Source of the DNA: a virus
Strand: one strand, 5' to 3'
UHGV virus genome: UHGV-0038492
DNA: 64,000 nucleotides
The translations under genes and the position numbers were made by a program. This document shows, piece after piece, positions 10,921-39,902 of the stretch (position 1 is the stretch's first letter; each line of letters starts with the position of its first letter). Below the pieces are notes generated by a model that worked only from the letters and a program-made list of their open reading frames with translations, did not search any database and was not told the origin of the DNA.

Positions 10921-10973
10921 TATGGGCACGTTTCTTTCGAAACGGAGTTACCACGTGATTAGGAGACAGACCA

Positions 10974-11051
10974 ATGTCTACTGAGAAGAAAAGCGGATTG
11001 AACGAAGTAATCGTACTGTTCAAACGCGACAACCCGGCTATTCCTCGGTAA
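10974..11051 (+). CDS. small ORF (25 aa, MSTEKKSGLNEVIVLFKRDNPAIPR)
   Basis: ATG 10974 preceded by AGGAGA with 7-nt spacer; too short for the track; real-gene status uncertain. Confidence 0.2.
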   Translation: MSTEKKSGLNEVIVLFKRDNPAIPR

Positions 11052-11229
11052 TCATAGTATTACTTAAAATTTACAGATTATCCCTTTATTCTGCTACTCG
11101 GGATACCGGTAGGGGGTAGGGGGCAATATGTATACGGATATAAATAGCGGAGGTATACGTAGTATACCGACATACTCTTCCCAGAGGAACGTAGTGACTT
11201 CCTTATTCCTTTTTAGGAGAATAAACCCC

Positions 11230-11964: not shown

Positions 11965-11987
11965 AAAACCTAAAAGGAGAATATACC

Positions 11988-12542: not shown

Positions 12543-12571
12543 GTAACGAAAAACCCTAAAGGAGAGTAAAG

Positions 12572-13723
12572 ATGCGAAATATTATTTCTAAACCAGGACA
12601 TGCCAAGATCCTAAAAGAACTGATGGACAGATGCTATAATCAGACTTGGCCTCTGCCAAGCTTAACCATCGAGTCTTCATTACAACGCGAGTTGTTTGGT
12701 TATAACTTGGGCTGCTGTGTACTGAGTGAATACGATGAGATTATCGCGCCTGTCGATGTTTGTACTTACGATGAAGAAATTGAAGGTTACCAGTTCGCGG
12801 TTTACTCAAATTGTGGACTAAATTACCGTAAACTCGTTGTTAGAGAAAAGAGTAGCGGCAGGAAGATTATGTTTAAGGTCTTCCCAAGTGGTAAAGTCAG
12901 CAATTTATGTTTTCAGCTTGAGCAAGTGCCGTTTCACGGTGCAGCTATTTTAACTAAAGCAGAACGTGCGTTATTAAGCGGGTTAATCGGCTTTGAAGCA
13001 AAAACCATCAAAGTAGAACAGGAACTCACACAAAACGATTTCGGCTCGACCTGGTACGAAAGTTTCTTCCGCTACGAAATATTAAGTGATAAAGCTATCA
13101 AACTCACTTACCGTTCTACCGACGATCTCGTTTACCATATTTTAGTTAGCGGTGAACCCCACCTGATTATTGAAGACAAAGGAGAAAATCAAATGTCTGC
13201 CTTAAAAGACGAATTAGCCCAATTCATTCGTGATGTTGAAGAGAAAAGCAAGAGCGATCACATTTTCTCACAACGTTATCCTGAACTTATTGACGAAACC
13301 ACCGATAGTGTCGTCGACGGTATACGCATTTTCCCAAGTGGTCTTGCAATTTACCGACTGCCTAGCGTTAACCAGCTTAAAGTCATGGAAATGCTAAAAG
13401 ACGTTTTAGCAGAAGCGGGTTGGGAATATCGCTTCGATTGCAATTTCGAAGGGATGGCGTTATTCGTTACAAAGAAAAATTATACGTTGTCAATCGATCT
13501 ACCTAAAAGTCAATATTACAGTTTCTTCCCGAAAGCGGATGACCGCACTGAAAAAGAACCTGCATTGTTACTTGATGCGGCAGAATCCAATACGCTAATG
13601 ATGCGTCTGCGGATGGTTGACAAAAAATTAAATACCGGTCATCTAACGACGATCGGTAAAGATTACGGTTGGAAATCTGTCGAACCGTACGGCAGTCAGC
13701 TGCTGTTTGTTGCTGACCTTTAA
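12572..13723 (+). CDS. hypothetical protein (383 aa); GW...QLLF module family
   Basis: Track ORF; RBS AAAGGAGAG; C-terminus TTIGKDYGWKSVEPYGSQLLFVADL plus a degenerate internal copy (LAEAGWEYRFDCNFEGMALFV). Confidence 0.75.
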   Translation: MRNIISKPGHAKILKELMDRCYNQTWPLPSLTIESSLQRELFGYNLGCCVLSEYDEIIAPVDVCTYDEEIEGYQFAVYSNCGLNYRKLVVREKSSGRKIMFKVFPSGKVSNLCFQLEQVPFHGAAILTKAERALLSGLIGFEAKTIKVEQELTQNDFGSTWYESFFRYEILSDKAIKLTYRSTDDLVYHILVSGEPHLIIEDKGENQMSALKDELAQFIRDVEEKSKSDHIFSQRYPELIDETTDSVVDGIRIFPSGLAIYRLPSVNQLKVMEMLKDVLAEAGWEYRFDCNFEGMALFVTKKNYTLSIDLPKSQYYSFFPKADDRTEKEPALLLDAAESNTLMMRLRMVDKKLNTGHLTTIGKDYGWKSVEPYGSQLLFVADL

Positions 13724-13749
13724 TAAGTGAAACTACACTTTCTCTAACT

Positions 13750-13775
13750 GCCGCGCTTTAGTCGCGGCTTTTGTT
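13750..13775 (+). terminator. intrinsic terminator (GCCGCG / CGCGGC stem + TTTTGTT)
   Basis: 6-bp GC stem 13750-13755 / 13763-13768, 7-nt loop, T-rich tail; between genes ending 13723 and starting 13791. Confidence 0.55.
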
Positions 13776-13790
13776 AAGAAGGAAATAGAA

Positions 13791-14564
13791 ATGAAAGTCC
13801 AATTAGACGACCTCTTTAAAACTGAACCGTATATGATTAAAGGTTCACTGGCTTCACTGTTGTTAGATGATAGATTTCATCGAACGCTCCAATTACAATC
13901 GGTCGAATCCGCACCAACAGAAGACGCGAGTCTTTATCAACGTATCACTTACACACGCGGAGAATATCGGCGATATAAACCTGATACGCTAACCGTTAAG
14001 CTCTGGCAAGTGGCCACAGGCAAAGTATTAACTTATCGCACTGTTGGTCTATACTACGTTGAACGTGCCTACGCGTGGTTAGAAGAAGTTAAAGAAATGG
14101 ATTACGACCGCTTAAGCAAAAGACTGCGCGATAACAACGCCAGTTTACCGATACGCAATTATTTCTCCACAATTGAAAATAGTCGTTGTTTCGTTTCACG
14201 CGAATCCATGATATTGCCTGGGGCTGATGTTCAGACGACACTAAAAGATGTGGTTGTGAGGAAAATCTTTCATGAATCTGAACACGTTGGATTTCGTATC
14301 TATTTAACGCACAAGAGGCCATTTACCGTGATTCATGTTGTTACCGTACCCGAAGGCTCATCAGTCGTTCGTGAGCTTCCTGACGCACGTGATCGTAGTC
14401 CTAATGAGCCACTTTACTTAATGTCAGGAACAAAATCAGAATCTTTGATGTCCCGTTACAGCATGGTTGATGTTGTTGATACTGCTATGAAGTTAGGTTG
14501 GAAAGAAGTACAGCAGCACGGCAAACAATTGCTGTTTATCGCAGATGTAAATCTCAATAACTAA
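13791..14564 (+). CDS. hypothetical protein (257 aa); GW...QLLF module family
   Basis: Track ORF; RBS AAGAAGGAAA; C-terminus VDTAMKLGWKEVQQHGKQLLFIADVNLNN. Confidence 0.75.
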   Translation: MKVQLDDLFKTEPYMIKGSLASLLLDDRFHRTLQLQSVESAPTEDASLYQRITYTRGEYRRYKPDTLTVKLWQVATGKVLTYRTVGLYYVERAYAWLEEVKEMDYDRLSKRLRDNNASLPIRNYFSTIENSRCFVSRESMILPGADVQTTLKDVVVRKIFHESEHVGFRIYLTHKRPFTVIHVVTVPEGSSVVRELPDARDRSPNEPLYLMSGTKSESLMSRYSMVDVVDTAMKLGWKEVQQHGKQLLFIADVNLNN

Positions 14565-14576
14565 AGAGGTGGTACC

Positions 14577-15155
14577 GTGTACCGATTAATAGAAATGAGA
14601 AAAGACGTTTGGTTGGAAAACCTCGTCGATGGGGAGCTCGAGGGAATAGAGCTTTCCTTACCAGAGAGAGCGGACACGGTATTGGCCTTTCTGGTAAAAC
14701 AGGCAGACCGTGAACCGGTAGGAATCTTCACTGTGGACTATAAAGATCCACGAGGAATTCATTTACGGAACATTTGCAGTGGTTTGGAAAGCTTACCGGC
14801 TAACCCTTTCTTAAACTACGCAAAACGTAAACTCCAACCGGGACAACACCTCTGGGTAACGTTATCGCCTGACGTTAGAATCATACGTGACGATTACTCG
14901 GCGTTTGTACAGGCAACGAAAGTCAGTCTGTATAACCCGAACGCAGAGCGTACCGATATGCCGTTTATAATTACCTTAGAAGACGATGGAACGCAAGAAG
15001 GTATTGAGGCAATTACGGAATTAGTAAACTCTTATCCGGTTGCCACTATCGAGTTAGAAAACCCAAGCCGACTACCGTTGGGTGACCTGCTCGAATGGAT
15101 CGAACTGAATACAGAATTCTTAATCAGTTCGCGTCAGTATCGATTCGATGTATAA
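14577..15155 (+). CDS. hypothetical protein (192 aa)
   Basis: Track ORF, GTG start preceded by AAGAGGTGG; followed by a strong terminator. Confidence 0.7.
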   Translation: MYRLIEMRKDVWLENLVDGELEGIELSLPERADTVLAFLVKQADREPVGIFTVDYKDPRGIHLRNICSGLESLPANPFLNYAKRKLQPGQHLWVTLSPDVRIIRDDYSAFVQATKVSLYNPNAERTDMPFIITLEDDGTQEGIEAITELVNSYPVATIELENPSRLPLGDLLEWIELNTEFLISSRQYRFDV

Positions 15156-15159
15156 CAAC

Positions 15160-15190
15160 GGTGGGGTGTAAGCCCCACCTTTTATTTTTT
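15160..15190 (+). terminator. intrinsic terminator (GGTGGGG / CCCCACC stem + TTTTATTTTTT)
   Basis: 7-bp stem 15160-15166 / 15173-15179, 6-nt loop, immediately followed by a T-run. Confidence 0.8.
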
Positions 15191-15195
15191 GTTCG

Positions 15196-15226
15196 CTGAC
15201 ATTAAAAATAATCTCAGATATATATT
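15196..15226 (+). promoter_or_regulatory. sigma70-like promoter candidate (-35 CTGACA, 17-bp spacer, -10 TATATA; also contains TATATTAC)
   Basis: CTGACA 15196-15201, 17-nt AT-rich spacer, TATATA 15219-15224; lies between the terminator at 15160-15190 and the first gene of the secreted-protein cluster; the polymerase that would use it is unknown. Confidence 0.35.
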
Positions 15227-15284
15227 ACCTAGGGGAGAGTTAAGATTAACTCTTTTACTTGTTAACCCCACGAGGAGCAAAACA

Positions 15285-15746
15285 ATGAAAATCTTCACTT
15301 CCTTTTTAATCGCCCTTTTCGCAATCGGATTCAATACTGCAAACGCTGCAATCAATAGTTGGGAACAATTACTGAACCCAGGTCAGGCTGTTTACGAAAT
15401 TGAAGACATCGCCGGAAACGGACTGTCTATCAACTGTGACACTGAAACTGCGAATCGCAAATTTTACGGTCGGATGGTTTGGTATTACGGGGAACCTGTA
15501 GGCGCAACTAACGCTGAAGATAACACGATGGATATCGTCGTAAATGGCAAAACCTACAACATCCCTACGGTGGATGGTAGTGACAAAGCAGAACACGCTT
15601 GGGTGGCTTTCGTTAATGCTATCGGTAACGCCAAAACTTTCAGTGTGAATATCAATGGTAACGAAGCCGCTAACTTTACCGTAGAAGGCGAACGTCTGTC
15701 TGAAACTTTCTTCCAGAACTGTGGACACACCCGTCCTAACAAATAA
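15285..15746 (+). CDS. small secreted protein 1 (153 aa precursor, Sec signal peptide)
   Basis: Track ORF 15189-15746 trimmed to ATG 15285 preceded by GAGGAG; N-terminus MKIFTSFLIALFAIGFNTANAA is a typical signal peptide; two Cys in the mature part. Confidence 0.7.
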   Translation: MKIFTSFLIALFAIGFNTANAAINSWEQLLNPGQAVYEIEDIAGNGLSINCDTETANRKFYGRMVWYYGEPVGATNAEDNTMDIVVNGKTYNIPTVDGSDKAEHAWVAFVNAIGNAKTFSVNINGNEAANFTVEGERLSETFFQNCGHTRPNK

Positions 15747-15768
15747 GTAATAATCTTTTTTAGAGTGC

Positions 15769-16161
15769 GTGAAAATGAATATCAGAACTATACTTTATAC
15801 CATCATTATTTTCTGTGCAGTCGGTATTACCGGCACTTATGCTTTCGGCGATTCGGACGTCCGCCATTACGAACCGGCTCCTGACTCACCCATTATCAAC
15901 CCGGATGAGTCACCTACGTTAATGCGTAGTTTCGGTAAACTGCAAGTTTATCGCTTAGTGCGTGGTGAAACGTGTACCGGATTACTCATTGCTGACACCC
16001 GTGCACAAGTCTATCAACGTCTGACGGATATCGCCTGCGAACAACCAAAAGTCATGTCGGTCAGTATTCATCCGTTAGAGGTCGGTAACTATACTGCTGT
16101 GGACTTCTTCCATAATGCAGAACTGATTGGCCGTATTACTTTAAATCGTAGCGCTGAATAA
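15769..16161 (+). CDS. small secreted protein 2 (130 aa precursor)
   Basis: Track ORF, GTG start; hydrophobic N-terminus ILYTIIIFCAVGITGTYAFG; two Cys in the mature part. Confidence 0.65.
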   Translation: MKMNIRTILYTIIIFCAVGITGTYAFGDSDVRHYEPAPDSPIINPDESPTLMRSFGKLQVYRLVRGETCTGLLIADTRAQVYQRLTDIACEQPKVMSVSIHPLEVGNYTAVDFFHNAELIGRITLNRSAE

Positions 16162-16179
16162 TTTAATGGAGAATTTACA

Positions 16180-16662
16180 ATGAAACGTTTACATACCCTG
16201 ATGTTCTTCGTGGCTATTCTGTTCACAGGCTTTACCTTTAACGCAGAAGCGGCTACCGTAAAACAAGCACTTAGCTGTAACCCGGAAGCCTGGGCTGAAC
16301 AACCTGGTGCGTGTCCTGATATCAATACGCTCTATACCGACGATGCTACTTATAAAGCCGCAATCGATAAAGCGTTGAAACCTGTCGGACTGGACGGAAT
16401 GTTCGGTAAAGATGGTGTGATGGATGGTCCTGGCAGTGATGTTATTCCTGTGAAAATCAACGGCAAAGTCTGGCTTGAAGCTACTGGTTGTAAAAGCAAC
16501 GCCTGTGGCTGGGAATATATCACAACGCTTTATAACCCGCAGACCCATGTCGTGGTAGGTTACTATTACAACGTCGACCCAGGTTACCTGGTTTGGTTCG
16601 GCGATATCGGCGTTAATGAATTCGCTTATCTGGTTAAGAAATACGTAGCTACGGTTAATTAA
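16180..16662 (+). CDS. small secreted protein 3 (160 aa precursor) with an Ivy-like C-K-x3-C loop
   Basis: Signal peptide MKRLHTLMFFVAILFTGFTFNAEA; mature part has GCKSNACGWEY, same Cys spacing as the CKPHDC loop of Ivy-family periplasmic inhibitors but without the His. Confidence 0.7.
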   Translation: MKRLHTLMFFVAILFTGFTFNAEAATVKQALSCNPEAWAEQPGACPDINTLYTDDATYKAAIDKALKPVGLDGMFGKDGVMDGPGSDVIPVKINGKVWLEATGCKSNACGWEYITTLYNPQTHVVVGYYYNVDPGYLVWFGDIGVNEFAYLVKKYVATVN

Positions 16663-16677
16663 TTTAAGGAGTCTATC

Positions 16678-17088
16678 ATGAAAACGTTTATCAAAACTTT
16701 ACTCGTTGCTGTAACTGTTCTGTTCTCTCTTAACGTGGCAGCAAAAACAGTAAAACTACCGGCGGGTATCAAATACGTCAACAGTACCGATGAATTCTAC
16801 TGCACAGAAATTGACGGTCTGTATTGCCAGACAAAGAATTTGTTTGAATACAAAGGTAACAGATATGTTTTCGTTGTTGAGCAAGGCGGTGCCTGGTGCT
16901 ACGACAGCCCTATGTCGGTACTCAACCTGGAAACTTGGAAAGCACAGAAAATTGAATACAAAGATAACCAACTGTGCTCAGGCGAAAACAAACCGTTCTT
17001 CAAAATCAAAAATGGTGTGCCGACTGTAGGTGTTATCGACACCTCTGGAGCACCAATCGTTGTAGCTCAGGACAAACTTAAAATCTAA
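16678..17088 (+). CDS. small secreted protein 4 (136 aa precursor)
   Basis: RBS AAGGAG; signal peptide MKTFIKTLLVAVTVLFSLNVAA; four Cys in the mature part. Confidence 0.7.
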   Translation: MKTFIKTLLVAVTVLFSLNVAAKTVKLPAGIKYVNSTDEFYCTEIDGLYCQTKNLFEYKGNRYVFVVEQGGAWCYDSPMSVLNLETWKAQKIEYKDNQLCSGENKPFFKIKNGVPTVGVIDTSGAPIVVAQDKLKI

Positions 17089-17098
17089 GGAGTAAACC

Positions 17099-17488
17099 AT
17101 GCGTCTTATCTGCGCTTTGTTGGCGTTTTTCTCAATCGGAGTTATGGCTTCTACACACATCGACGATTTATTACTTACCCCGGCAACGAACACAGACTAT
17201 CACTACAACCCACCGGGTTTTGAAGTCTGCGAAGGTGATGCAGGCGAATGCCAAGAAGTTGGCGCAGATGGACGCTATATACTCGTAAAAGCAGACGGCG
17301 GGACAACCTGCCCTGCGGGTTATTATTTCGTACTTGACTCTGTAGCAAAAGAGGTGCTTCCTGTAACGACCAAAACGTGTGACCCCACAGTTGTACTAAC
17401 GCTTGCGAAAAGCAAATCACGTGACCGTCATCTTATCGTCATCGAAGAACGCGGTGAGATGCTAGGTGCTATTGAATTAGATTACTGA
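17099..17488 (+). CDS. small secreted protein 5 (129 aa precursor)
   Basis: RBS AAGGAG; signal peptide MRLICALLAFFSIGVMAS; five Cys in the mature part. Confidence 0.7.
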   Translation: MRLICALLAFFSIGVMASTHIDDLLLTPATNTDYHYNPPGFEVCEGDAGECQEVGADGRYILVKADGGTTCPAGYYFVLDSVAKEVLPVTTKTCDPTVVLTLAKSKSRDRHLIVIEERGEMLGAIELDY

Positions 17489-17499
17489 TGTGTAGTCTT

Positions 17500-17548
17500 G
17501 ACCCCGGTTCGTGCCGATTCGTCCGGGGTCCTTTTTACGACTTGTTTT
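17500..17548 (+). terminator. intrinsic terminator (GACCCCGG / CCGGGGTC stem + CTTTTT...TTTT)
   Basis: 8-bp stem 17500-17507 / 17523-17530 with 15-nt loop, followed by a T-rich tract; closes the secreted-protein operon. Confidence 0.65.
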
Positions 17549-17567
17549 ACCTAAAGGAGAATTAAAA

Positions 17568-18044
17568 ATGCGTTTATCTAATGTTTATCAAGCAGCCCAA
17601 TTCCATCACGAACTGACGGCTAAGCCTGAATATATTCGCCACAACTTAACGGTGGCTTGGAAACTGTTATTGATTGCTGATGCTGCACGGCACAACGACC
17701 AGGAAACTATTATCAAAACTGTGCGTACTTTACGCCCTATTGACCTGGAAACGATTTGGTCGTTTGACTTAACTCGAATTTATCATCGTCGTTTTAATGC
17801 GGCGGTGGATGCTATACGTCCTTATTTCCACTATTTGCAAGCAACATCGGACTGTGGTCCATCCTTAGAGTGGGTCTTGGTACAAAGCGTATGGAGCGAT
17901 TACATTTATCTCCTATCTTTAGAGACGGGTGAATGCATTATCGCTAACGAGGTATTCTCAACCAACGCTGAAATGTATCGTTCCCACGCTACTATCCAGG
18001 GTGTCTCACAGCCTATCTTATCACTCACGCACTTAGGGCTGTGA
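17568..18044 (+). CDS. hypothetical protein (158 aa)
   Basis: Track ORF 17511-18044 trimmed to ATG 17568 preceded by AAAGGAGAA. Confidence 0.65.
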   Translation: MRLSNVYQAAQFHHELTAKPEYIRHNLTVAWKLLLIADAARHNDQETIIKTVRTLRPIDLETIWSFDLTRIYHRRFNAAVDAIRPYFHYLQATSDCGPSLEWVLVQSVWSDYIYLLSLETGECIIANEVFSTNAEMYRSHATIQGVSQPILSLTHLGL

Positions 18045-18052
18045 TTAGCCCG

Positions 18053-18080
18053 GCCCCGCTGTGTACGGGGCTTCTTTTTT
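18053..18080 (+). terminator. intrinsic terminator (GCCCCG / CGGGGC stem + TTCTTTTTTG)
   Basis: 6-bp GC stem, 7-nt loop, T-run. Confidence 0.7.
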
Positions 18081-18098
18081 GCCCAAGGAAACTGAAAC

Positions 18099-18707
18099 AT
18101 GAACGAAATTACTTTGGTTCGTTTTATCGAAGCGATGCATCGAAACGAAGCTAATCCACACTCTCCATTATTCATCGATTTAATGGAGGAAGAAGTCGAA
18201 GGGTTCTTAGCGTACCCGCGTTTGAAAGCGTATTTTGAACGTAAAACACCAAGCGCTTACGAAAAGCTGATGTACGCGTTAGATAACCGTACTACGCTAA
18301 ATAATACGCCGTTTAAAGCGCTGGAAGCAATAGACCCTACCGGGGGTGCAGGTATCCCACAACGCGTTGTGTTCTACTACATCGACAACGGCCGTATTAA
18401 AGCCGACGTTGTAAACTGGATCTCCGAAGGGGAAATCCCGGAAACGCGTACTTTTAACCTCTGCCCGGTAGAAGAAGGTTGGGTCGCAGGAACGCATTAT
18501 TCCTATCCGTATCAAAGCATCAAATCACCTTATCTGTATCCGGTGTATTTAGATGACGTTACGCCAGGGAAATGTATTCCCGTTACCAATCTGATTTGTT
18601 TACTGACGATGGAAGTTGTTGCGTCAGATGCAGGCCAGGCTTGGGTTGAGCAATCGAAAAATATCCAAAACTGGCAGGAGATGGGCTACAAGCTCTATCA
18701 GCCGTAA
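18099..18707 (+). CDS. hypothetical protein (202 aa)
   Basis: Track ORF; RBS AAGGAAA. Confidence 0.7.
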   Translation: MNEITLVRFIEAMHRNEANPHSPLFIDLMEEEVEGFLAYPRLKAYFERKTPSAYEKLMYALDNRTTLNNTPFKALEAIDPTGGAGIPQRVVFYYIDNGRIKADVVNWISEGEIPETRTFNLCPVEEGWVAGTHYSYPYQSIKSPYLYPVYLDDVTPGKCIPVTNLICLLTMEVVASDAGQAWVEQSKNIQNWQEMGYKLYQP

Positions 18708-18713
18708 TACCAC

Positions 18714-18762
18714 GAGAGAACCTTCGGGTTCTCTCCCTTCTCTTTTATTTTTTTTCTTTTTA
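18714..18762 (+). terminator. intrinsic terminator (GAGAGAACC / GGTTCTCTC stem, TTCG loop, long T-tract)
   Basis: 9-bp stem 18714-18722 / 18727-18735, tetraloop TTCG, followed by CCTTCTCTTTTATTTTTTTTCTTTTT. Confidence 0.85.
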
Positions 18763-18791
18763 CACCACGCTCCGTGAATATGGAGGTGGAC

Positions 18792-21296
18792 ATGTTAAAA
18801 GTTGAACGTATTGTACTTAAAGGATTTACCGGAATGGGATTACACGAAATCGAAACCTTCGATTTTACTATCCATTCCCCGACCACCATTATCCTCGGTG
18901 GTAACGGCTGCGGTAAGACCAGCTTACTGTCCGTGTTTCTACCTATCGCACCTTCGAAATCCGAATTCCGTGACGGGGGTTCCTACACCAATATCTGTTT
19001 GGTTAACGACCATCGTTACAAGTTTAAAGTTGCACGTAAAGGCAACTCACTGGTTTGCGATATCGAGAACCTGACGACGGGTACCAAAATCGTCGAGCAA
19101 GGTAATGCGAAAGTGTACAACTCTCGCGTGGAAGAAATCACGGGTATTACAAAAGAGATTAAAGAGTTACTGAACGGAGAAGTGCTTTTAACGGATGCAG
19201 GAACGGAACTGCGTCGTAAGTGGTTCTACCGTTTAAGTACATCAGACTTAACGTACGCGTTAGGTTTTTATCAACGTTTACGAAAAAACCTAACGATGTT
19301 AAACGGCGGTATTGAAATCACCAGCCGCAAAATTGCAGAGTTGCGTACCCGCGTGATTGATAACGAGGAAGAACGTCAGCAGTTAGCAACACGGTTAAAA
19401 GCATTAGAAGCGGATTTACGTGAACTCAACAAACAGATCGAACAGCTGCCAGGTCTGAATCGTGACGTTACGGTGGCAACGATTCAATCGCTATTGCTTA
19501 AAATCGAAGCACCGATTAATGCTATCTTGGAACACCGTGGCGGATTACCTACGGAAGAACAGGTAGAGGAAGCACGACGCGTTGAAGCCACTGCCCGTGA
19601 AGCGGTGGTCTCTGCTGAAACAGAGCTGTCTATGCTAAACAAAGATTTGTCTTTGTTGATGGACGAGTCTACCCGCCAAGATTACCTGATGCGAAATCAT
19701 GAAGGGTTAAAAAACACGGTTGCGAAACTGCGCGAGTTATTAAAGCAGTGGGACACCGAACACCTTTTCCCTGAACTGTTTGCAGAGACCGTTAACATCG
19801 ACCAGCTTAAAGCAGCGACGGATGCGCGTGTCTGGGGACAACGTTTAGGAACAACGCTGGACGCCATTAAGTCAACGGAGCGGTTGAACGTACTGGAAGA
19901 GAAGCTGTTGACCTTAGACCAAAACTCGTCTGGGTTGCGTGACCGACTACAACGCGTTGAAAACGTATTGCAGAACCTCAACCACGAACGGAATCACTAT
20001 TTGGAAACCGCCGAGGTTGATTGTCCGCAGTGTCAATTTAAATTCCGTCCGGGTGTGCGTCGATCGCTGCCTGAATTGGAAGAAGCCATTCGTGGGCAGA
20101 TGGAGCAACGTAATACGTTACAGACTCAGCTTGATTCCGTGTTGCGAGACCGTACGGAATTAGAATCGGACGTTAATTACATGCGTCAAGTACGGGAAAT
20201 CGTTTTAACGTATTCGAAAGACCCGGTATTGAGTTTGTTCTTTAAACGTCTCCAGGAGCGGAATGTCTTTACGGATAACCGCAGTCAGTTCGGCAGTTTG
20301 TGCGCGGAGTTCGATCGTGAACTTTATTCTGCAATTGAGTACCACGAAACGATACACCGTTTTGCTAAAGCGGAAAAAGAGTGGGAAAATGCAGTTGCAG
20401 CGGTAGGTAACGTTGACGGTGCACTACAGCAGAAAATTGCCTTCCAGCAGGAACGTTTGGGTAAGGCGACAGAAACGCTCTCAGAGCGCCGTAGAGAGCA
20501 CGCAGTTGCTAATGATACCTTTTGTTATCTAAACGAACTTAAAGCCACTGTAGACAATTTTAATGCGGTTTTTGAGCGTTTAGAGAACGATGTTAAGGTA
20601 ACATTAACCAACACGGTGGTCGAAACGTTATTAAACGCCCGAGAAAACAAGTTGGATGCGTTCACCACAGCACGGGAACGGTACCGTCAAATGGAAAACG
20701 AACTCAACCAACTTACTGCGTTAGAAAAGGAGTTATCAGATTTACAAGCGCAGCAATTTAATAACAAACTGATGATTCAAGCGTTCTCACCTGAGAAAGG
20801 GGTGTTACGCAAATACTTCTACAACGCTATCGTGAGAATCACGGAATTGATGACGCGGTATATCGAACAAGTCTGGACCTACCCTATGCGGGTCATGCCG
20901 TGTGACTTAACCGACGGTGACTTAGACTACACGTTCCCAGTGCAGTTGAAAACCCATCCTGAACCGGTACCTGACGTACGGAAAGGGTCGAAAGCGCAGC
21001 GAGCCATCTTTAATTTGATGTTTCGTTTAACCGCTTACAAGGCCCTGAAACTTCATCAGTATCCGCTACTGTTGGATGAACCGTCAGAAGGGATGGATGA
21101 AGAACACCGAAATAACCTCGTTGGGTTTATTAAAACCTTGGCGAATTCTGGTGAGTTCTCTCAGTTACTGGTGGTGTCTCACGAAGCAGAAATTCATTCA
21201 AAACTTAACGAAGCCGCATACTGTGTTATTGAACCTGAAGGCGTAACACTGCCTGCGGTTTACAACGAAGGAGTAAAAATTGTCTACGCAAACTGA
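18792..21296 (+). CDS. Rad50 / SbcC-like ABC ATPase with coiled coil and CxxC zinc hook (834 aa)
   Basis: Track ORF 18774-21296 trimmed to ATG 18792 preceded by GGAGG; N-terminal Walker A GGNGCGKTS; central coiled-coil-like region with CPQC; C-terminal Walker B LLLDEP and H-loop VVSHEA. Confidence 0.8.
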   Translation: MLKVERIVLKGFTGMGLHEIETFDFTIHSPTTIILGGNGCGKTSLLSVFLPIAPSKSEFRDGGSYTNICLVNDHRYKFKVARKGNSLVCDIENLTTGTKIVEQGNAKVYNSRVEEITGITKEIKELLNGEVLLTDAGTELRRKWFYRLSTSDLTYALGFYQRLRKNLTMLNGGIEITSRKIAELRTRVIDNEEERQQLATRLKALEADLRELNKQIEQLPGLNRDVTVATIQSLLLKIEAPINAILEHRGGLPTEEQVEEARRVEATAREAVVSAETELSMLNKDLSLLMDESTRQDYLMRNHEGLKNTVAKLRELLKQWDTEHLFPELFAETVNIDQLKAATDARVWGQRLGTTLDAIKSTERLNVLEEKLLTLDQNSSGLRDRLQRVENVLQNLNHERNHYLETAEVDCPQCQFKFRPGVRRSLPELEEAIRGQMEQRNTLQTQLDSVLRDRTELESDVNYMRQVREIVLTYSKDPVLSLFFKRLQERNVFTDNRSQFGSLCAEFDRELYSAIEYHETIHRFAKAEKEWENAVAAVGNVDGALQQKIAFQQERLGKATETLSERRREHAVANDTFCYLNELKATVDNFNAVFERLENDVKVTLTNTVVETLLNARENKLDAFTTARERYRQMENELNQLTALEKELSDLQAQQFNNKLMIQAFSPEKGVLRKYFYNAIVRITELMTRYIEQVWTYPMRVMPCDLTDGDLDYTFPVQLKTHPEPVPDVRKGSKAQRAIFNLMFRLTAYKALKLHQYPLLLDEPSEGMDEEHRNNLVGFIKTLANSGEFSQLLVVSHEAEIHSKLNEAAYCVIEPEGVTLPAVYNEGVKIVYAN

Positions 21297-21480
21297 TTGG
21301 TGGCGTCAGTTACTAAGCGTTTTAGGGTTTAGCGTCATGGTGCTGGTTGCCATTCTGTACGTGCTATTTTGTATAACGGCGATTTTATGGGTGGTCTTAG
21401 CGTACGCGATTAGACTCGCCTGGGGTTCAATTTGGCACCAACGCGAATGTGAGTGGCGGTGTGTTGGAGGGAAGTCATGA
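21280..21480 (+). CDS. small membrane protein (66 aa)
   Basis: TTG start preceded by AGGAG, overlapping the end of the ATPase gene; very hydrophobic, about two transmembrane segments. Confidence 0.45.
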   Translation: MSTQTDWWRQLLSVLGFSVMVLVAILYVLFCITAILWVVLAYAIRLAWGSIWHQRECEWRCVGGKS

Positions 21481-21587
21481 TTGAGGGTATTCTGTTAACA
21501 CTTGGGTCGTTGTGGATTATTGGGAAATCCCTCAACTGGCTGATTAAAAAGTACGGATGGGCTTTCAAAGGCTCTACGCACAGTTAA
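21477..21587 (+). CDS. micro membrane peptide (36 aa, MIEGILLTLGSLWIIGKSLNWLIKKYGWAFKGSTHS)
   Basis: ATG overlaps the preceding stop (ATGA); one predicted TM helix; too short for the track. Confidence 0.3.
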   Translation: MIEGILLTLGSLWIIGKSLNWLIKKYGWAFKGSTHS

Positions 21588-21595
21588 GTTAGAAC

Positions 21596-21625
21596 CCCCT
21601 CCTGGGTAACTGGGAGGGCGTTTTA
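21596..21625 (+). terminator. weak hairpin terminator candidate (CCCTCC / GGAGGG + GTTTT)
   Basis: 6-bp stem with 10-nt loop and a short T-run. Confidence 0.3.
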
Positions 21626-21637
21626 CGAGGGAAAACC

Positions 21638-21766
21638 ATGACTGTTGTCAATACTACCAATGCTGCAATTGGCGCTTTATACAACGCGGAACTAACATGG
21701 GGTGCGGGATTTATTACCGTACTGCTTCTTGCCGCAGCCGCTTTTATCATTGGACGTTGGTTTTAA
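21638..21766 (+). CDS. micro membrane peptide (42 aa, MTVVNTTNAAIGALYNAELTWGAGFITVLLLAAAAFIIGRWF)
   Basis: ATG preceded by GAGGGAAAACC; one predicted TM helix. Confidence 0.35.
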   Translation: MTVVNTTNAAIGALYNAELTWGAGFITVLLLAAAAFIIGRWF

Positions 21767-21799
21767 TTTCAATCTTTTTGCGTCTGTAAGGTCTGATAA

Positions 21800-22243
21800 A
21801 TGGAAATTTATTTGTTGAACGCACTTTCTAAAATCGGTGAAGAACAAGCGAAAGATTTACTCGCACTTCATTACCGTTACTTAGATCACCAAGCAACGAT
21901 GCTGAAAATCAAAACCGCTGTACCGAAATTAAACGTGCGTCAACTGATCGAAGGCAACTGTGTTGTTCTGATTTATATCGACGATGTTGCGGTGGGTTAT
22001 TGCAGTTACCGTAATCGCAACGGGGTACTCAAAATTCGTTCGTTATACGTGCTACCCGATTACCGTCAGCGCGGGGTAATGAAAGAAATCTTCAAAGCGA
22101 TAGCCGCTGATGAAACATTCGGTGAAATTGCCATTGGGATGTACACGAAGTGCAAAGAAGCGAAAGAGTATTTCATTCGTCGTGGCTACAAAGCAACCTA
22201 TTCTCACGATAAAGAATGGGTGGATTTCAGCAAAACTTTCTAA
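21800..22243 (+). CDS. GNAT-family N-acetyltransferase (147 aa)
   Basis: LKIRSLYVLPDYRQRGVMKEIFKAI resembles the GNAT acetyl-CoA-binding motif region. Confidence 0.7.
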   Translation: MEIYLLNALSKIGEEQAKDLLALHYRYLDHQATMLKIKTAVPKLNVRQLIEGNCVVLIYIDDVAVGYCSYRNRNGVLKIRSLYVLPDYRQRGVMKEIFKAIAADETFGEIAIGMYTKCKEAKEYFIRRGYKATYSHDKEWVDFSKTF

Positions 22244-22253
22244 AACAATAAAG

Positions 22254-22304
22254 GCTCTCTTGACGTTCCTCACTATGAGTGTGAGATTTTTACGTCAGGA
22301 GAGC
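22254..22304 (+). promoter_or_regulatory. stem-loop that base-pairs the Shine-Dalgarno of the gene starting at 22310
   Basis: 12-bp stem GCTCTCTTGACG (22254-22265) / CGTCAGGAGAGC (22293-22304) with one G-U pair, enclosing a smaller CTCAC / GTGAG hairpin; the right arm contains the AGGAG ribosome-binding site. Confidence 0.4.
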
Positions 22305-22309
22305 TACTT

Positions 22310-22546
22310 ATGTTAAACAGTTTCGGTGTAGGTGGAATGGATACAAGCATTTGCTGGAAAGAATACGAACGCGCAAAAGCATTTCTCCAGCATCCCAACG
22401 TGGGTAAGATCGGTCAGGTGTGTTTTGGTAAACCTGCACTGACAGCCTGTATTCAAGGTGCGTTAGGAACGCTGCCACCTGAATCACCTTTCGAGCCTAA
22501 GGAGAATCCAGATGTTACCAGGAACCCAAACCCCGTATCTATTTAG
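22310..22546 (+). CDS. hypothetical protein (78 aa)
   Basis: Track ORF; RBS AGGAGAG; overlaps the next ORF by 35 nt in another frame. Confidence 0.5.
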   Translation: MLNSFGVGGMDTSICWKEYERAKAFLQHPNVGKIGQVCFGKPALTACIQGALGTLPPESPFEPKENPDVTRNPNPVSI

Positions 22547-22886
22547 TGAACCACTGGATAACAGCGACATCTTACAAATCTGTTATCAGTGTCACGAAAT
22601 CGGTGGCAGTGAACTTACGCGGGTTAATAAACTACTGTGGCTGATTCCAGAAATCGAATTACCGTTCGTTAAGCCGAGTTTGTGGCGTCGTGGTGCGTGC
22701 CGCGAAGCGTATATGCTGTCAAGATTTAACATTAATCTGGAGAAGGTCTGGGAGAAAATGAATGACGCCCAAACCCGAGAACAGATTACGCACACGCTAG
22801 AATTGCACCTTGCCATGAATCGCCTCGGTCTCGAACACGAAGGGCTGGAGTCCGTTATCAGTCAATGGGTGAAAAGGAATCGTTAA
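22512..22886 (+). CDS. hypothetical protein (124 aa)
   Basis: Track ORF; RBS AAGGAGAA. Confidence 0.55.
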   Translation: MLPGTQTPYLFSEPLDNSDILQICYQCHEIGGSELTRVNKLLWLIPEIELPFVKPSLWRRGACREAYMLSRFNINLEKVWEKMNDAQTREQITHTLELHLAMNRLGLEHEGLESVISQWVKRNR

Positions 22887-22993
22887 TGTCTAAAACGTAT
22901 ATAGCGATTTTGGTTGAGTTGGCGATTGGCGGAACGCGGTTTATCCCTGTGCATCAATTATGCTTACCTCACTCGGTAAGACCGTTATGTTAA
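22886..22993 (+). CDS. small ORF (35 aa)
   Basis: ATG overlaps the preceding stop (TAATG); RBS AAAGGAA; overlaps the start of the macro-domain gene; real-gene status uncertain. Confidence 0.25.
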   Translation: MSKTYIAILVELAIGGTRFIPVHQLCLPHSVRPLC

Positions 22994-23484
22994 CGATACT
23001 TCCAGAATCGGATATTGACAACGACCTGTTTAATGCGCCTGAGCGCTTCAAGGTCGTTACGATAAATTGCGTAGGGGCAATGGGTCGGGGTATCGCTTTA
23101 GCGTGCAGAGAACGCTATCCTGGGCTTTATCAGGACTACCGAGAACGTTGCTTCGCTAACGAAATACGAATAGGGAATGTGTATGTTTATCCCGAGGAAA
23201 ACTGCATTCTCTTACCAACCAAAACACATTGGAAACTAAAATCCCAGGTTTCTTATGTTATCGCGGGTATCACCGCGTTGGCAGATGCCGCAGAAAATTT
23301 AGAGGGTGGGGTGGCTTTACCGCCGTTAGGGATGGCTAACGGTTGGTTGACAAAAGCTGAACGTCAACAAATCTTTTTGTTTATCGAAAAGAAACTCGTA
23401 CCGAGGAGACAACATTACCGTTTCTATTTACCCGATACGCTTTACCAAGAAGCAAAACCTTTAATTCCAAACCTTTTTAAATAG
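22987..23484 (+). CDS. putative macro-domain (ADP-ribose binding / hydrolase) protein
   Basis: VVTINCVGAMGRGIALAC resembles the Gly-rich ADP-ribose-binding loop of macro domains and LPPLGMANGW the second conserved Gly motif; alternative start at 22960; assignment is motif-level only. Confidence 0.5.
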   Translation: MLTILPESDIDNDLFNAPERFKVVTINCVGAMGRGIALACRERYPGLYQDYRERCFANEIRIGNVYVYPEENCILLPTKTHWKLKSQVSYVIAGITALADAAENLEGGVALPPLGMANGWLTKAERQQIFLFIEKKLVPRRQHYRFYLPDTLYQEAKPLIPNLFK

Positions 23485-23584
23485 ATATTATCATTAGGGC
23501 ACACAACAAAGGAGTACCAGCTGTCCGCGCCGTGATTTCGTTCTACGGAACACGGAAATGTATAAATCCAACTGGAGAACTAGT

Positions 23585-24271
23585 ATGTTTCGTACCTTCT
23601 TTCTTTTACTGGTAACACTTTTCGCGTTTAACGCATACGCATCCAAATCCGCACCCAGTGCCAAACACCATCGTGAATTCGAAATGATTCAAGACCGTTT
23701 CGAACGTGTAAAACCGTTGATTGTGGAAATCTCCCGAAAGCAGGGTGTTGATCCTAAGTTGATGACCACGCTAATCTATCGAGAATCACGGTTTAATCCG
23801 AAGGCGTATAATCGAACGTCTAAAGCGCACAGTCTGGTTCAGATGCTACCGAGCACAAAGCGTAATTTACTAAAACTCTACGGCAACGAAATCGGACTTA
23901 GTCGTAACGCGGATTTGTATAATCCTCGTAATGCGGTGCTATTGGCTTCCGTCTACGTTAAACATTTAGAAAAGGGGTTGACTAAACGACTCAAACGCAA
24001 GCCCACTATTGCAGAAATTGCATTGGCTTATCACTGGGGTGAAAGTGGTGCACACGCCAGGATTAAAAGCAAGTCTCGGGCGGCACAACGAGAAATGGCG
24101 AGCTTTATGAAAGATGCAACGTTCTACAGTGCGAAAATCGACAAGCCTGTAGCATCTCGTCAGCTTGCGTTTGCGAAGAAACCAGAACGCCAGATTCAGT
24201 TAGCGGAAGTTAACCGAATTTGGGATACGATAAACACCAGTTTTCCATTTAAACAAGGAGTCACCCTTTGA
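23585..24271 (+). CDS. secreted lytic transglycosylase (SLT-domain, candidate endolysin)
   Basis: Track ORF 23558-24271 trimmed to ATG 23585 preceded by GGAGAA; signal peptide MFRTFFLLLVTLFAFNAYA; SLT family-1 signature YRESRFNPKAY...AHSLVQM. Confidence 0.8.
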   Translation: MFRTFFLLLVTLFAFNAYASKSAPSAKHHREFEMIQDRFERVKPLIVEISRKQGVDPKLMTTLIYRESRFNPKAYNRTSKAHSLVQMLPSTKRNLLKLYGNEIGLSRNADLYNPRNAVLLASVYVKHLEKGLTKRLKRKPTIAEIALAYHWGESGAHARIKSKSRAAQREMASFMKDATFYSAKIDKPVASRQLAFAKKPERQIQLAEVNRIWDTINTSFPFKQGVTL

Positions 24272-38405: not shown

Positions 38406-39902
38406 ATGGCAGGCCCAACTAAGCAAGTTATCGGTGAAGTAATTCGTCCTCGTTTTAACGTTTATACCATCATGGACCACGCCTTAGGCAACTACGAAAG
38501 AGGCGAAGATGGTTTATACTACCTTAACGGTGGTTTTGCCCACATCATGGGTTTCGCGGGTCGTGGTAACACCTTCAAATCTACACTGTTGGATTTCTGT
38601 ATCTTCCAAATCCTGCAACGCTATAAAGCAGAGTGGGGTTCGAAATACGATACTGAAGTGTCTGCTGCCCTCGATCGCTTAGAGACCGGTTATATTTCTG
38701 CCATGCACGCCAACGGTATTGACGATGGAACTTCGGTACTGGAACTTATTCACGAAGGTCGTTATAACCTCGTTGGTTCTGACGTGATGCCAGGGGAACA
38801 GTATTACAGTGACTATATTCGTGATGAAGTGGAAAAACGCTTCAAGCAGTATATGTCTGGTAAAACCCGCGTAACGCCGTTCCTTGACCCGGTTCGTCGT
38901 AAGCAAAAAGAAATCCTTGACCCGTGGCTGTATTCTATCGACTCCCTGTCGGAGTGGCACTCGTCTTCTCTGGAAGACAAGCACGCTAAAACAGATATCG
39001 GTGATTCCGATCAGAACATCCTCAACGCCCACGACGCCTTGCAGAAATCGAACATGATGAGTCGTTGGCCGTCTGCGTTTGCCCGTGGTGGTTTCTACAT
39101 GGGCTTTGTTGCACAGATGGCCGATGACTCCGGTAAGGCGATGGCGGGCGGTCGTCAAGGACAGAAAGCAAACGCGAAGCTGTTGGACGATGCGAACGAC
39201 GATCTCAAATTCGCAGGGATTCCTCGTCGTCAGTTAAGCTTCCTGACTAACTCGTTTATTGTTGCGACAAAATCAGGCGAGCTGAAAAAGGACCAGAGTT
39301 ATAACGCGCAGACCGGTGTTAACGAAGAACTTTACCCAACCGCACGTTCAAAAGCCATGAACGCGTCGGTTAACGACCTGAAAGTCATCACCTTTACACA
39401 ATACCGTGCTAAAGGCGGTCACACGGGCGTGAAGTTCCAGATGATCTTCTCGCAAGAGATGGGTCTACTGTACCACCTGAGCTTGTGGCATTACCTGAGC
39501 GACACCCTGAAAAAATCCGAATTTGGCTTTACGTCCAGCGGTAGCGGTGGTTCCATTAAAGAACTCCAGATTCTGCCTGGTGTTAAATTCCAGCGTACGA
39601 CGATTCGTGACATGATCGACGATAACCCGAAACTGCGTCGGGCATTAGAAATCACGGCTGCGATTGCGTACATGCAAAACAACTACCATCGTTTAGAGGT
39701 TAAATATCACCTCACGATGGAAGAAATCTACAAACTCATTGATGAAAAATGGGATTGGAATGAGATTCTGGAGAACACCGTAGAATACTGGATGTTTAAA
39801 GACCAGGAAACGAAAGGCGGTAAACGCACGTTAACTGCCCGTACGATTCTGGGTATGGCCGTGGACGGCCTGGAACCGAAGTTCCTGACCAAAAAGAAAT
39901 AA
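38406..39902 (+). CDS. hypothetical protein (498 aa) with deviant P-loop-like motif
   Basis: GFAGRGNTFKST resembles a deviant Walker A; no confident family assignment. Confidence 0.7.
   Translation: MAGPTKQVIGEVIRPRFNVYTIMDHALGNYERGEDGLYYLNGGFAHIMGFAGRGNTFKSTLLDFCIFQILQRYKAEWGSKYDTEVSAALDRLETGYISAMHANGIDDGTSVLELIHEGRYNLVGSDVMPGEQYYSDYIRDEVEKRFKQYMSGKTRVTPFLDPVRRKQKEILDPWLYSIDSLSEWHSSSLEDKHAKTDIGDSDQNILNAHDALQKSNMMSRWPSAFARGGFYMGFVAQMADDSGKAMAGGRQGQKANAKLLDDANDDLKFAGIPRRQLSFLTNSFIVATKSGELKKDQSYNAQTGVNEELYPTARSKAMNASVNDLKVITFTQYRAKGGHTGVKFQMIFSQEMGLLYHLSLWHYLSDTLKKSEFGFTSSGSGGSIKELQILPGVKFQRTTIRDMIDDNPKLRRALEITAAIAYMQNNYHRLEVKYHLTMEEIYKLIDEKWDWNEILENTVEYWMFKDQETKGGKRTLTARTILGMAVDGLEPKFLTKKK

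Follow-up and report, generated by a model that had tools for sequence, protein, structure and literature searches.

Does an SbcC/Rad50-like ATPase gene with no nuclease gene beside it encode a stand-alone protein, or is its partner encoded elsewhere? This question is raised by a gene on a 64,000-nucleotide stretch of the virus genome UHGV-0038492, referred to here as the window. In bacteria, archaea, T4 and T5, mre11 or sbcD typically lies next to the ATPase gene. A sequence-only reading of the window had called the gene an orphan, and had left open whether it is a recombination factor using a remote or host nuclease or an ATPase for competition between phages. Here, we find that the gene very probably (roughly 0.88) encodes the ATPase of a phage SbcCD (Mre11–Rad50-type) complex whose two subunit genes are split, following the pattern of phiKZ-related, nucleus-forming jumbo phages (Chimalliviridae).

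An SbcC/Rad50-like ATPase with a predicted zinc hook

The open reading frame lies on the + strand and runs to 21296 from either a GTG at 18774 or an ATG at 18792. The ATG at 18792 is the true start, since it is preceded by the Shine-Dalgarno sequence GGAGGT (Table 1) and all homologs start with MLKVERI. The encoded protein matches phrog_77, "SbcC-like subunit", over its whole length (E = 1.8e-91, 309 bits) and is 69% identical to Asesino gp207 and 58% identical to SPN3US gp186. It is the ortholog of these two proteins and of phiKZ gp165. The top PDB sequence matches are Rad50 proteins, including that of P. furiosus, and hhalign against E. coli SbcC gave 81% probability over the stretch from the signature to the H-loop. 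Pfam SMC_N scored 35 bits, under its gathering threshold, and NCBIfam gave no match above cut-off for this protein or for the clade SbcD described below.

The Walker A, mid-protein CPQC, Walker B and H-loop motifs that had been read from the 834-residue ORF were all located. Residues G36, N38, G39, G41 and K42, the hook residues C411, P412 and C414, and S733, D762, E763, D769, S796 and H797 are invariant, both across 11 homologs down to 19% identity and across 21 database homologs. The motifs are therefore not chance matches. The ABC signature keeps S733 and reads GSKAQ in the sub-clade versus the canonical SGGE/Q, whereas distant clade members keep CSGGE; the motif has decayed without being lost. 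Where a Q-loop glutamine would be expected, the sequence is LNGE. With both elements degenerate, the ATPase cycle may differ from that of canonical Rad50.

An AF2 model of the protein (pLDDT 83) contains two helical arms of ~250 residues each with the CPQC hairpin between them. The Rad50/SbcC architecture and hook proposed from the sequence are upheld. The best Foldseek match is near-full-length C. thermophilum Rad50 (MRN; E = 7e-18), the matches listed also include human Rad50 and E. coli SbcC, and SMC5/6, condensin, MukB and JetC rank under Rad50. The C-terminal head lobe aligns to P. furiosus Rad50 and, by hhalign, to E. coli SbcC. A long antiparallel coiled coil is predicted to separate the two head lobes, the antiparallel packing being taken from superposition on Rad50. 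In the model, the coiled-coil apex is a CxxC hairpin of ~20 residues with no SMC hinge, and the hook hairpin itself spans residues 409–418. This apex is a predicted zinc hook.

Two other family assignments were considered and rejected. The apex consists of residues 406–425 only and holds no globular hinge or MukB-type dimerization domain, which sets the protein apart from SMC, MukB and JetC. For Gabija GajA and OLD, PADLOC returned no model at E ≤ 1, and the chain ends at the ABC C-lobe, with no further domain that could be the TOPRIM nuclease fused to the ATPase in those families.

Table 1. Features of the SbcC-like locus and the recombinase gene in window coordinates
Feature	Coordinates	Strand	Residues	Basis or remark
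SbcC/Rad50-like ATPase gene	18792..21296	+	834 aa + stop	ORF, phrog_77, homologs, model
Shine-Dalgarno GGAGGT	18782..18787	+		4 nt 5' of ATG 18792
N-terminal ABC head lobe	18792..19250	+	1-153	Model secondary structure; contains Walker A
Walker A GGNGCGKTS	18897-18923	+	36-44	
Predicted outgoing coiled-coil arm	19251..20006	+	154-405	DSSP of AF2 model; helical with short breaks
Predicted hook region	20007..20066	+	406-425	AF2 model; short beta-hairpin between helical arms
CPQC	20022-20033	+	411-414	Almost exact protein midpoint
Predicted returning coiled-coil arm	20067..20873	+	426-694	DSSP of AF2 model
C-terminal ABC head lobe	20874..21293	+	695-834	Motifs, alignment to Rad50/SbcC
Degenerate signature motif KGSKAQR	20982-21002	+		
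Walker B LLLDEP	21066-21083	+	759-764	
D-loop SEGMD	21084-21098	+		
H-loop VVSHEA	21171-21188	+	794-799	
66-aa hydrophobic (membrane-type) peptide gene	21280..21480	+		ORF, hydropathy, phrog_16515; TTG start
Second small ORF	21453-21587			Weakly hydrophobic
Third small ORF	21638-21766			Strongly hydrophobic
UvsX-like recombinase gene	38406..39902	+		phrog_97, E = 1e-54; collinear with Asesino gp238, "putative UvsX"

Gene neighborhood

The window is collinear with positions 152–219 kb of the Erwinia jumbo phage Asesino, and no DNA-level match to it was found in the GenBank phage collection. The 5' neighbor of the SbcC gene encodes a 202-aa phrog_9964 protein with no assigned function. Besides other such phage PHROGs, the surrounding genes encode an acetyltransferase, a macro-domain-type phosphatase and a transglycosylase, the same set as in Asesino.

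Three tiny membrane peptides had been read downstream of the gene. The three ORFs exist; strong hydrophobicity is seen in the first and third, and the second is only weakly hydrophobic. Only the first matches a PHROG (Table 1). Its TTG start lies within the end of the SbcC gene, giving an overlap of 17 nt that is identical in Asesino gp207/gp208. The SPN3US equivalent, gp187, is likewise encoded directly downstream as a small transmembrane protein and has been noted as analogous to T4 gp47.1, the product of a small membrane protein gene associated with T4 46/47 (Thomas et al. 2016, PMC5105663). The 66-aa peptide is a possible SbcC accessory or anchor.

SbcD is encoded far from SbcC in related genomes

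The absence of a flanking Mre11/SbcD gene, as read from the sequence, was upheld. The flanking genes of SbcC carry no Mre11 motifs, tblastn of Asesino gp44 found no homolog of the clade SbcD in the 64-kb window (best E = 1.1), and Pfam detected no metallophosphatase among 20 mid-sized window proteins. A regular-expression scan of all window ORFs for DxH...GDxxD...GNH[DE] also returned nothing, a pattern that the clade motif III, GTPSHD, escapes. With E. coli SbcD as the query, tblastn of the phage collection recovered T4-like and Bacillus phages and no phiKZ-like phage, BLAST being too insensitive here. Asesino gp44 is annotated as the SbcCD D subunit and lies ~96–150 kb from gp207.

The window covers about a quarter of its genome, and the genomes in which SbcD was located are one with 97% identity and those of all relatives. 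The same-species contig IMGVR_UViG_3300045988_078609 (L042) has 97% DNA identity to the window, its SbcC differs from the window protein at 2 of 834 residues, and it encodes SbcD ~88 kb from SbcC. Locus searches with Asesino gp44 or alignment A1 missed L042, which was reached with the closer SbcD from L034. All complete relatives examined, the same-species genome included, have an Mre11/SbcD-fold gene at another locus, and the SbcC-like gene is no orphan. This is the outcome that the sequence-only reading had said would overturn it, with the proviso that SbcD was located in the 97%-identical genome and other relatives. Of the options offered there, a recombination factor using a remote nuclease agrees with the evidence.

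The identity of this partner is supported at several levels. L042 SbcD matches phrog_100, "SbcD-like" (2e-63), and keeps all five Mre11 motifs (I–V) invariant, with motif III of the clade reading GTPSHD, not GNHD/E. The top PDB sequence matches of the SbcD profile are Mre11/SbcD only. In the AF2 model (pLDDT 91.7), the top 17 Foldseek matches are all Mre11/SbcD, with E. coli SbcD from the SbcCD head complex ranking first (2.9e-14, TM 0.59). Pfam Metallophos scored 18.5 bits on the clade SbcD, under its gathering threshold; together with the altered motif III, this shows that the protein is divergent enough to escape simple motif scans. The exact L042 SbcD sequence also occurs in a different sample.

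SbcC and SbcD occur together across phages. Homologs of the two were found in 290 and 291 phage records, respectively, with nearly identical genus breakdowns, and SbcD is also present in 10 of 10 IMG/VR contigs >220 kb that bear SbcC. The two genes are not adjacent, being at least 85 kb apart in the nine genomes measured, and adjacency is not a defining Rad50/SbcC trait. This is a caution for phiKZ-related jumbo phages, which scatter functionally linked genes: no neighboring partner in 64 kb does not mean no partner. The SbcD gene is itself translationally coupled to that of the PHIKZ066 family, a conserved core protein (~275 aa) for which no Pfam match, PDB-sequence match or recognizable fold was found.

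A different candidate for a hidden SbcD, the ~330-aa gene divergent from SbcC in phiKZ, FLC4, Totoro, Survivor and pTD1, was set aside because the real SbcD was found elsewhere. Three of the five records label it structural or baseplate, and the remaining two call it hypothetical or "phage protein".

Comparison with characterized systems

The family, its essentiality, the SbcD partner and the gene separation are already known from SPN3US and phiKZ, through 2016 work and later functional-genomics papers. SPN3US gp186 (836 versus 834 aa) is alike over its full length, with the same split ABC head and long middle, and its sbcD is likewise unlinked, by ~92–149 kb. Sequence divergence and host are the only differences; the window phage is uncultivated and nearer to Asesino. 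An amber mutant showed that gp186 is essential, gp27 was named SbcD, the two genes were called "drastically separated", and the small membrane protein downstream of gp186 was described (Thomas et al. 2016, J Virol, PMC5105663).

phiKZ gp165 is more distant, with 22–26% identity over its full length, and conserves Walker A, the CPxC hook, Walker B and the H-loop; its signature motif reads GSDSQ versus GSKAQ in the window phage. The SbcC-like gp165 and the SbcD-like gp065, which we mapped as SbcD, are Chimalliviridae core genes and are unlinked, ~114 kb apart in a phiKZ-type genome. In phiKZ and several other lineages SbcC is divergent from a baseplate or structural gene, whereas in the window and Asesino it is preceded by a run of small ORFs on its own strand. 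phiKZ orf165 tolerated no transposon insertion, while the UvsX-like recombinase of the phage was dispensable (PMC12676376). ASO knockdown of 165 and of 065 gave fewer plaques, the gp165 phenotype being weak (+) (PMC12571901).

The working model for this pair is T4 gp46/gp47, an essential ATP-dependent end-processing nuclease that acts upstream of UvsX in recombination-dependent replication. The T4 genes are clustered, whereas those of the window type are separated, and T4 gp46 is a smaller protein (~560 aa) whose coiled coil is much shorter and which has no BLAST-detectable similarity to the clade SbcC (PMC5105663). E. coli SbcCD and archaeal and eukaryotic Mre11–Rad50 have the domain plan of both subunits, the CxxC hook and the five phosphoesterase motifs in common with the clade proteins. 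Unlike the phage pair, bacterial and archaeal sbcD–sbcC and mre11–rad50 are operon neighbors (checked for E. coli), and the phage proteins differ from the cellular ones in the GTPSHD motif III of SbcD and in the degenerate signature and Q-loop of SbcC.

Proposed role in DNA end processing

By analogy, a physical SbcC–SbcD complex with ATP-dependent nuclease activity is proposed for the clade. As in E. coli SbcCD, T4 gp46/47 and Mre11–Rad50, two SbcC chains would be joined via zinc at their hooks, ATP would engage the SbcC heads, and an SbcD dimer would dock on the heads and the coiled-coil bases. ATP hydrolysis would then license SbcD to cleave DNA hairpins and DNA ends, blocked ones included. 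The 3' single strands so produced would be passed to the UvsX-like recombinase of the phage (Table 1), the probable downstream user of resected ends and pathway partner, for recombination-dependent replication and break repair. The site is presumably inside the phage nucleus, and both the recombination-dependent role and the location are drawn by analogy to T4. To our knowledge, T4 replication does not take place inside a protein-shelled nucleus.

A more elaborate form of this proposal can be drawn up, in which SbcCD of the nucleus-forming phages has gained extra clade-specific subunits (the 66-aa peptide and the PHIKZ066 family) and a rewired ATPase cycle, making it a tethered end-processing complex for replication in the phage nucleus. 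We regard this form as rather unlikely, though gene overlap and translational coupling make candidate leads of the peptide and the PHIKZ066 family.

Alternative roles

The protein could have drifted from the SbcCD role, serving either as an SMC-like DNA tether or organizer in the phage nucleus, or in a larger assembly, anchored via the 66-aa peptide or including the PHIKZ066 protein, with SbcD as one partner among several. [quoted passage not shown] The phiKZ requirement for gp165, with its UvsX-like recombinase dispensable (PMC12676376), points the same way; however, the same holds in T4, where 46/47 are essential and uvsX is not, with no need for an extra role. The hairpin apex with no SMC hinge and the close-to-strict phyletic coupling of SbcC and SbcD also argue against drift, and the peptide and PHIKZ066 are tied to the complex by gene position only. 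We consider a drifted role improbable and favor the split-gene SbcCD complex.

A stand-alone SMC/Rad50-like ATPase for anti-phage or inter-phage competition, resembling LmuB, Gabija or OLD and acting without an Mre11-type nuclease, is very unlikely. The non-adjacent nuclease gene fits such a role, and the fold that the protein has in common with Lamassu LmuB is seen in a weak full-length PADLOC match (PDLC03859, 4.5e-17, 60.5 bits) and in a structural match (9hqu_A, 4.8e-11); PADLOC matches to JetC, AriA and PtuA are weaker still, and Wadjet JetC structures are also among the Foldseek matches. However, the LmuB score is five times below that of phrog_77, as expected from shared superfamily ancestry, and PADLOC gave no GajA or OLD model (E ≤ 1). 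No LmuA- or LmuC-like or other effector flanks SbcC, and its neighbors are conserved phage genes. SbcC is instead a core gene kept in synteny within a lytic phage family, with an Mre11-fold partner gene co-occurring in ~290 jumbo-phage records. Its orthologs are required for growth on a plain host even when no competitor is present (PMC5105663; PMC12676376) and count as essential or core replication-type genes (PMC5105663; PMC12676376; PMC12571901). The competition role floated from the sequence is thus set aside.

Use of a host SbcD/Mre11 nuclease in place of a phage-encoded one, for which the lack of a local phage nuclease gene is the sole support, is hardly credible, given that a phage SbcD is conserved alongside SbcC throughout the clade, that the phage nucleus has been described as excluding most host proteins (PMC10643120), and that BLAST cannot detect the low identity to E. 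coli SbcC, so that an interface conserved with host SbcD is not to be expected.

The exact SbcC-like protein of the window also occurs on a 15-kb Logan contig, which is 100% identical to window positions 8792–21756.

Architecture of the SbcC-like protein

The open frame extends from a GTG at 18774 to a stop at 21296 on the plus strand. The ATG at 18792 was taken as the start, giving 834 aa, because a GGAGGT Shine-Dalgarno sequence ends 4 nt upstream and the resulting N-terminus, MLKVERI, is common to all SbcC-like homologues aligned. Every Rad50/SbcC-type motif named in the sequence-only reading is present in this ORF and conserved across homologues. Residues G36, N38, G39, G41, K42, C411, P412, C414, S733, D762, E763, S796 and H797 are among the invariant columns of two alignments, one with 11 homologues down to 19% identity and the other with 21 database homologues. 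Judged by these columns, the predicted motifs are not chance matches. The ABC signature is GSKAQ in the Asesino/SPN3US sub-clade, GSDSQ in phiKZ and the canonical CSGGE in distant clade members, with the serine S733 invariant despite the degeneracy. Together with the LNGE sequence at the expected Q-loop position, the degenerate signature suggests that the ATPase cycle may be altered.

Assignment to the Rad50/SbcC family, made from these motifs, is upheld by profile and structure comparisons. The PHROGs family phrog_77, "SbcC-like subunit of palindrome specific endonuclease", matches the ORF over its full length (E=1.8e-91). Pfam SMC_N aligns end to end with a score under the gathering threshold, Rad50 heads are the top PDB sequence matches, and hhalign of the family profile to E. 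coli SbcC gave 81% probability for the segment from signature to H-loop. The AlphaFold2 model, built with 21 homologues as input (mean pLDDT 83), places the CPQC motif on a hairpin between two helical arms. In the PDB, Foldseek matches it best to a near-full-length Rad50 from the C. thermophilum MRN complex (E=7e-18), then to SMC5/6, condensin, MukB, JetC and LmuB; the matches also include human Rad50 and E. coli SbcC. An apex CxxC hairpin instead of a hinge domain distinguishes Rad50/SbcC from true SMC proteins.

Coordinates of features in the window and in related loci (aa, residues of the SbcC-like protein; L-numbers, loci in their own coordinates)
Feature	Location	Strand	Basis
N-terminal beta/alpha lobe	aa 1-153	+	AlphaFold2 model
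Walker A GGNGCGKTS	aa 36-44	+	sequence
Expected Q-loop position, LNGE without glutamine	19167-19190, aa 126-133	+	alignment
Helices, first arm	aa 154-405	+	AlphaFold2 model
Short beta-hairpin with CPQC	aa 409-418	+	AlphaFold2 model
CPQC hook motif	aa 411-414, about mid-protein	+	sequence
Helices, second arm	aa 426-694	+	AlphaFold2 model
C-terminal lobe	after aa 694	+	AlphaFold2 model
Degenerate ABC signature GSKAQ	20982-21002, aa 731-737	+	alignment
Walker B LLLDEP	aa 759-764	+	sequence
D-loop SEGMD	after Walker B	+	sequence
H-loop VVSHEA	aa 794-799	+	sequence
66-aa strongly hydrophobic peptide gene, TTG start	21280-21480	+	ORF, hydropathy; phrog_16515
Five small signal-peptide-like ORFs, about 129-185 aa	15189-17488	+	hydrophobic N-terminal segment each
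Exonuclease	30048-30782		phrog_255
RNase H-like protein	30785-32296 (window)		
UvsX-like recombinase	38406-39902	+	phrog_97, 1e-54; Asesino gp238
SbcD cassette	L042 (same-species contig) 5992-7973; L008 (Asesino) 21690-23743; also L043-L046		
Divergent gene beside SbcC-like gene	L002 4825-5826; L003 5058-5939; L004 2969-3958; L005 2112-3092; L006 1979-3103	-	

The phage and its relatives

At the DNA level the window has no match in the GenBank phage collection. A protein search with the SbcC-like ORF returned 290 phage records, all from phiKZ-related, nucleus-forming jumbo phages (Chimalliviridae), with identities of 69% to Asesino gp207, 58% to SPN3US-type Salmonella phages and about 26% to phiKZ-type phages. 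By tblastx, the entire window, about one quarter of the phage genome, is collinear with 152-219 kb of Erwinia phage Asesino at a near-constant offset. Over the 8.5 kb compared, a 224.8-kb same-species IMG/VR contig (UViG_3300045988_078609) shows 97.2% DNA identity, and the SbcC it encodes differs at 2 of 834 residues. A Logan contig matches window 8792-21756 at 100% identity. IMG/VR and ENA hold near-complete relatives of about 225 kb, and the phage is frequent in public read sets, apparently as an abundant relative of the Asesino/SPN3US group that has not been cultivated. Clusters at 90% identity contain 495 member sequences for the window SbcC and 248 for SbcD (cluster ids P0001 and P0051).

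A remote SbcD

No partner nuclease was found in the window by a motif scan of ORFs or by Pfam on 20 mid-sized proteins, tblastn found no homologue of the clade SbcD there, and the genes flanking the SbcC-like ORF are, as claimed, without a nuclease by ORF and PHROG annotation. Motif III of the clade SbcD is GTPSHD, not GNHD, and a classic-motif regular expression is therefore blind to it. In Asesino, gp44 (21690-22910), annotated "putative nuclease SbcCD D subunit", is separated from gp207 by about 150 kb along the linear map and by about 96 kb the other way round. Its homologues number 291 phage records (Pseudomonas 81, Erwinia 62, Salmonella 24, Vibrio 23, Serratia 21, Aeromonas 19, Klebsiella 16, Ralstonia 13, others), a breakdown by genus nearly the same as that of the SbcC-like records. 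All ten IMG/VR contigs above 220 kb with an SbcC-like gene also carry an SbcD-like gene, among them the same-species contig. The two genes are at least 85 kb apart in 9/9 genomes measured, and none of six lineages inspected has an annotated SbcD beside the SbcC-like gene. The protein had been called an orphan lacking an Mre11/SbcD partner, which does not hold: an SbcD-like gene was seen in all relatives and in the 97%-identical genome, rather than on the molecule of the window itself. The remote nuclease offered as one option is what was found, about 88 kb away on the same strand in the same-species contig and remote across the clade.

In the Salmonella phage records SPFM1, 6, 9, 12, 15, 20 and SPFM7, SbcC and SbcD homologues of normal length match 5-8% of the query (proteins P0046-P0049, P0092, P0096, P0097; match H40 for SPFM7), and in the sister records SPFM3, SPFM11 and SPFM22 95-100% is matched. 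This points to a sequence-quality or frameshift fault in the deposited genomes, not to biology.

The remote SbcD is strongly divergent, with Pfam Metallophos at E=0.003, under threshold, and NCBIfam sbcd/Mre11 at E about 0.01. It matches phrog_100, "SbcD-like" (2e-63), and has invariant motifs I (D-x-H), II (GD), III (EGTxSHD), IV (HG) and V (GH-x-H). A 10-sequence profile retrieved from the PDB essentially only T. maritima Mre11, E. coli SbcD and eukaryotic Mre11 (best E=1.2e-6). The top 17 Foldseek matches of its AlphaFold2 model (pLDDT 91.7, pTM 0.82) are all Mre11/SbcD, with E. coli SbcD from the SbcCD head complex in first place (E=2.9e-14, TM 0.59). This evidence is specific, and profiles and predicted fold argue strongly for an Mre11/SbcD despite the divergence.

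We put the probability at 0.88 that the window gene encodes the ATPase subunit of a split-gene SbcCD, with SbcD known from the 97%-identical genome and relatives, not from the window's own molecule. The gene is already known: its orthologue is an essential core gene described in jumbo phages, and the split arrangement has been described as well. SPN3US gene 186, the orthologue of the window gene and homologue of phiKZ ORF165, is essential from an amber mutant; gp186 was called the SbcC subunit and gp27 named as the SbcD subunit (Thomas et al. 2016, PMC5105663). Iyer et al. 2021 (PMC7824862) place both subunits in practically every jumbo phage. In phiKZ, orf165 tolerates no transposon insertions (PMC12676376), and plaques are reduced when antisense (ASO) knockdown targets either 165 ("SbcC-like nuclease") or 065 ("Nuclease") (PMC12571901); synteny in phage fnug identifies 065 as the SbcD homologue.

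Candidate subunits and alternative readings

A weaker reading has the SbcCD complex carrying extra clade-specific subunits or acting as an SMC-like tether, and two gene overlaps speak for additional subunits. The 66-aa peptide gene starts 17 nt before the end of SbcC, an overlap identical in Asesino gp207/gp208. SPN3US gp187, a 63-aa small transmembrane protein directly downstream of 186, was likened to T4 gp47.1 (PMC5105663), and the peptide may anchor the complex to the membrane or act as an accessory factor. At the remote locus, the SbcD stop overlaps by 4 nt (translational coupling) the start of a ~275-aa core protein of the PHIKZ066 family (phrog_3229; about 266-278 aa) in Asesino, the same-species contig, EL and OBP. 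This protein, "Uncharacterized 066" in the phiKZ ASO screen (PMC12571901), has no Pfam or PDB-sequence match and no recognisable fold; its gene position beside SbcD makes it a third-subunit candidate. Pairing of the SbcC-like protein with a host nuclease is unnecessary because the phage SbcD is conserved. A defence or inter-phage competition ATPase (Lamassu/Gabija/OLD-like), also proposed earlier, could draw on the LmuB match (60 bits) and on a structural likeness common to any Rad50/SMC protein, but is contradicted by the lack of LmuA/LmuC or any effector nearby, the lack of GajA or OLD matches, core-gene synteny and essentiality in single infections of relatives.

Proposed mechanism

What has been shown for a split-gene SbcCD is the domain layout of its two subunits, the conservation of their catalytic and hook residues, their close to strict phyletic coupling and their essentiality in relatives. 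By analogy with E. coli SbcCD, T4 gp46/47 and Mre11-Rad50, SbcC would dimerize through zinc at the hooks and ATP at the heads, with an SbcD dimer docked on the heads and coiled-coil bases. Once ATP is hydrolysed, the complex would turn to cutting DNA ends, hairpins and blocked ends. Resected ends could then pass to the phage UvsX-like recombinase for recombination-dependent replication and repair, presumably in the phage nucleus; by this analogy such a resection-fed role is reasonably probable. The predicted UvsX-like protein is so divergent that Pfam fails, with no RecA-type family at E<=0.05. Recombination genes are scattered in the window, from SbcC at 18.8 kb through the exonuclease and RNase H-like genes to UvsX at 38.4 kb.

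Neighbouring genes

Upstream of the SbcC-like gene is a 202-aa protein of the function-unassigned family phrog_9964; downstream the 66-aa peptide is followed by two small ORFs, an acetyltransferase, a macro-domain-type protein and a transglycosylase. In phiKZ-type phages, Ralstonia FLC4, Serratia Totoro, Pantoea Survivor and Vibrio pTD1, a divergently transcribed gene of about 300-370 aa adjoins the SbcC-like gene. Three of the five records annotate it as structural/baseplate, and the other two call it hypothetical or "phage protein". This pairing is lost in the window and Asesino. The small-ORF block further upstream, which only partially matches Asesino, resembles a group of genes for small secreted or periplasmic proteins, with predicted hydrophobic N-terminal segments such as MKIFTSFLIALFAIGFNTANA (within a listed ORF) and MKRLHTLMFFVAILFTGFTFNAEA. 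One of its ORFs has a precomputed Pfam YfjT match on the identical Logan contig.
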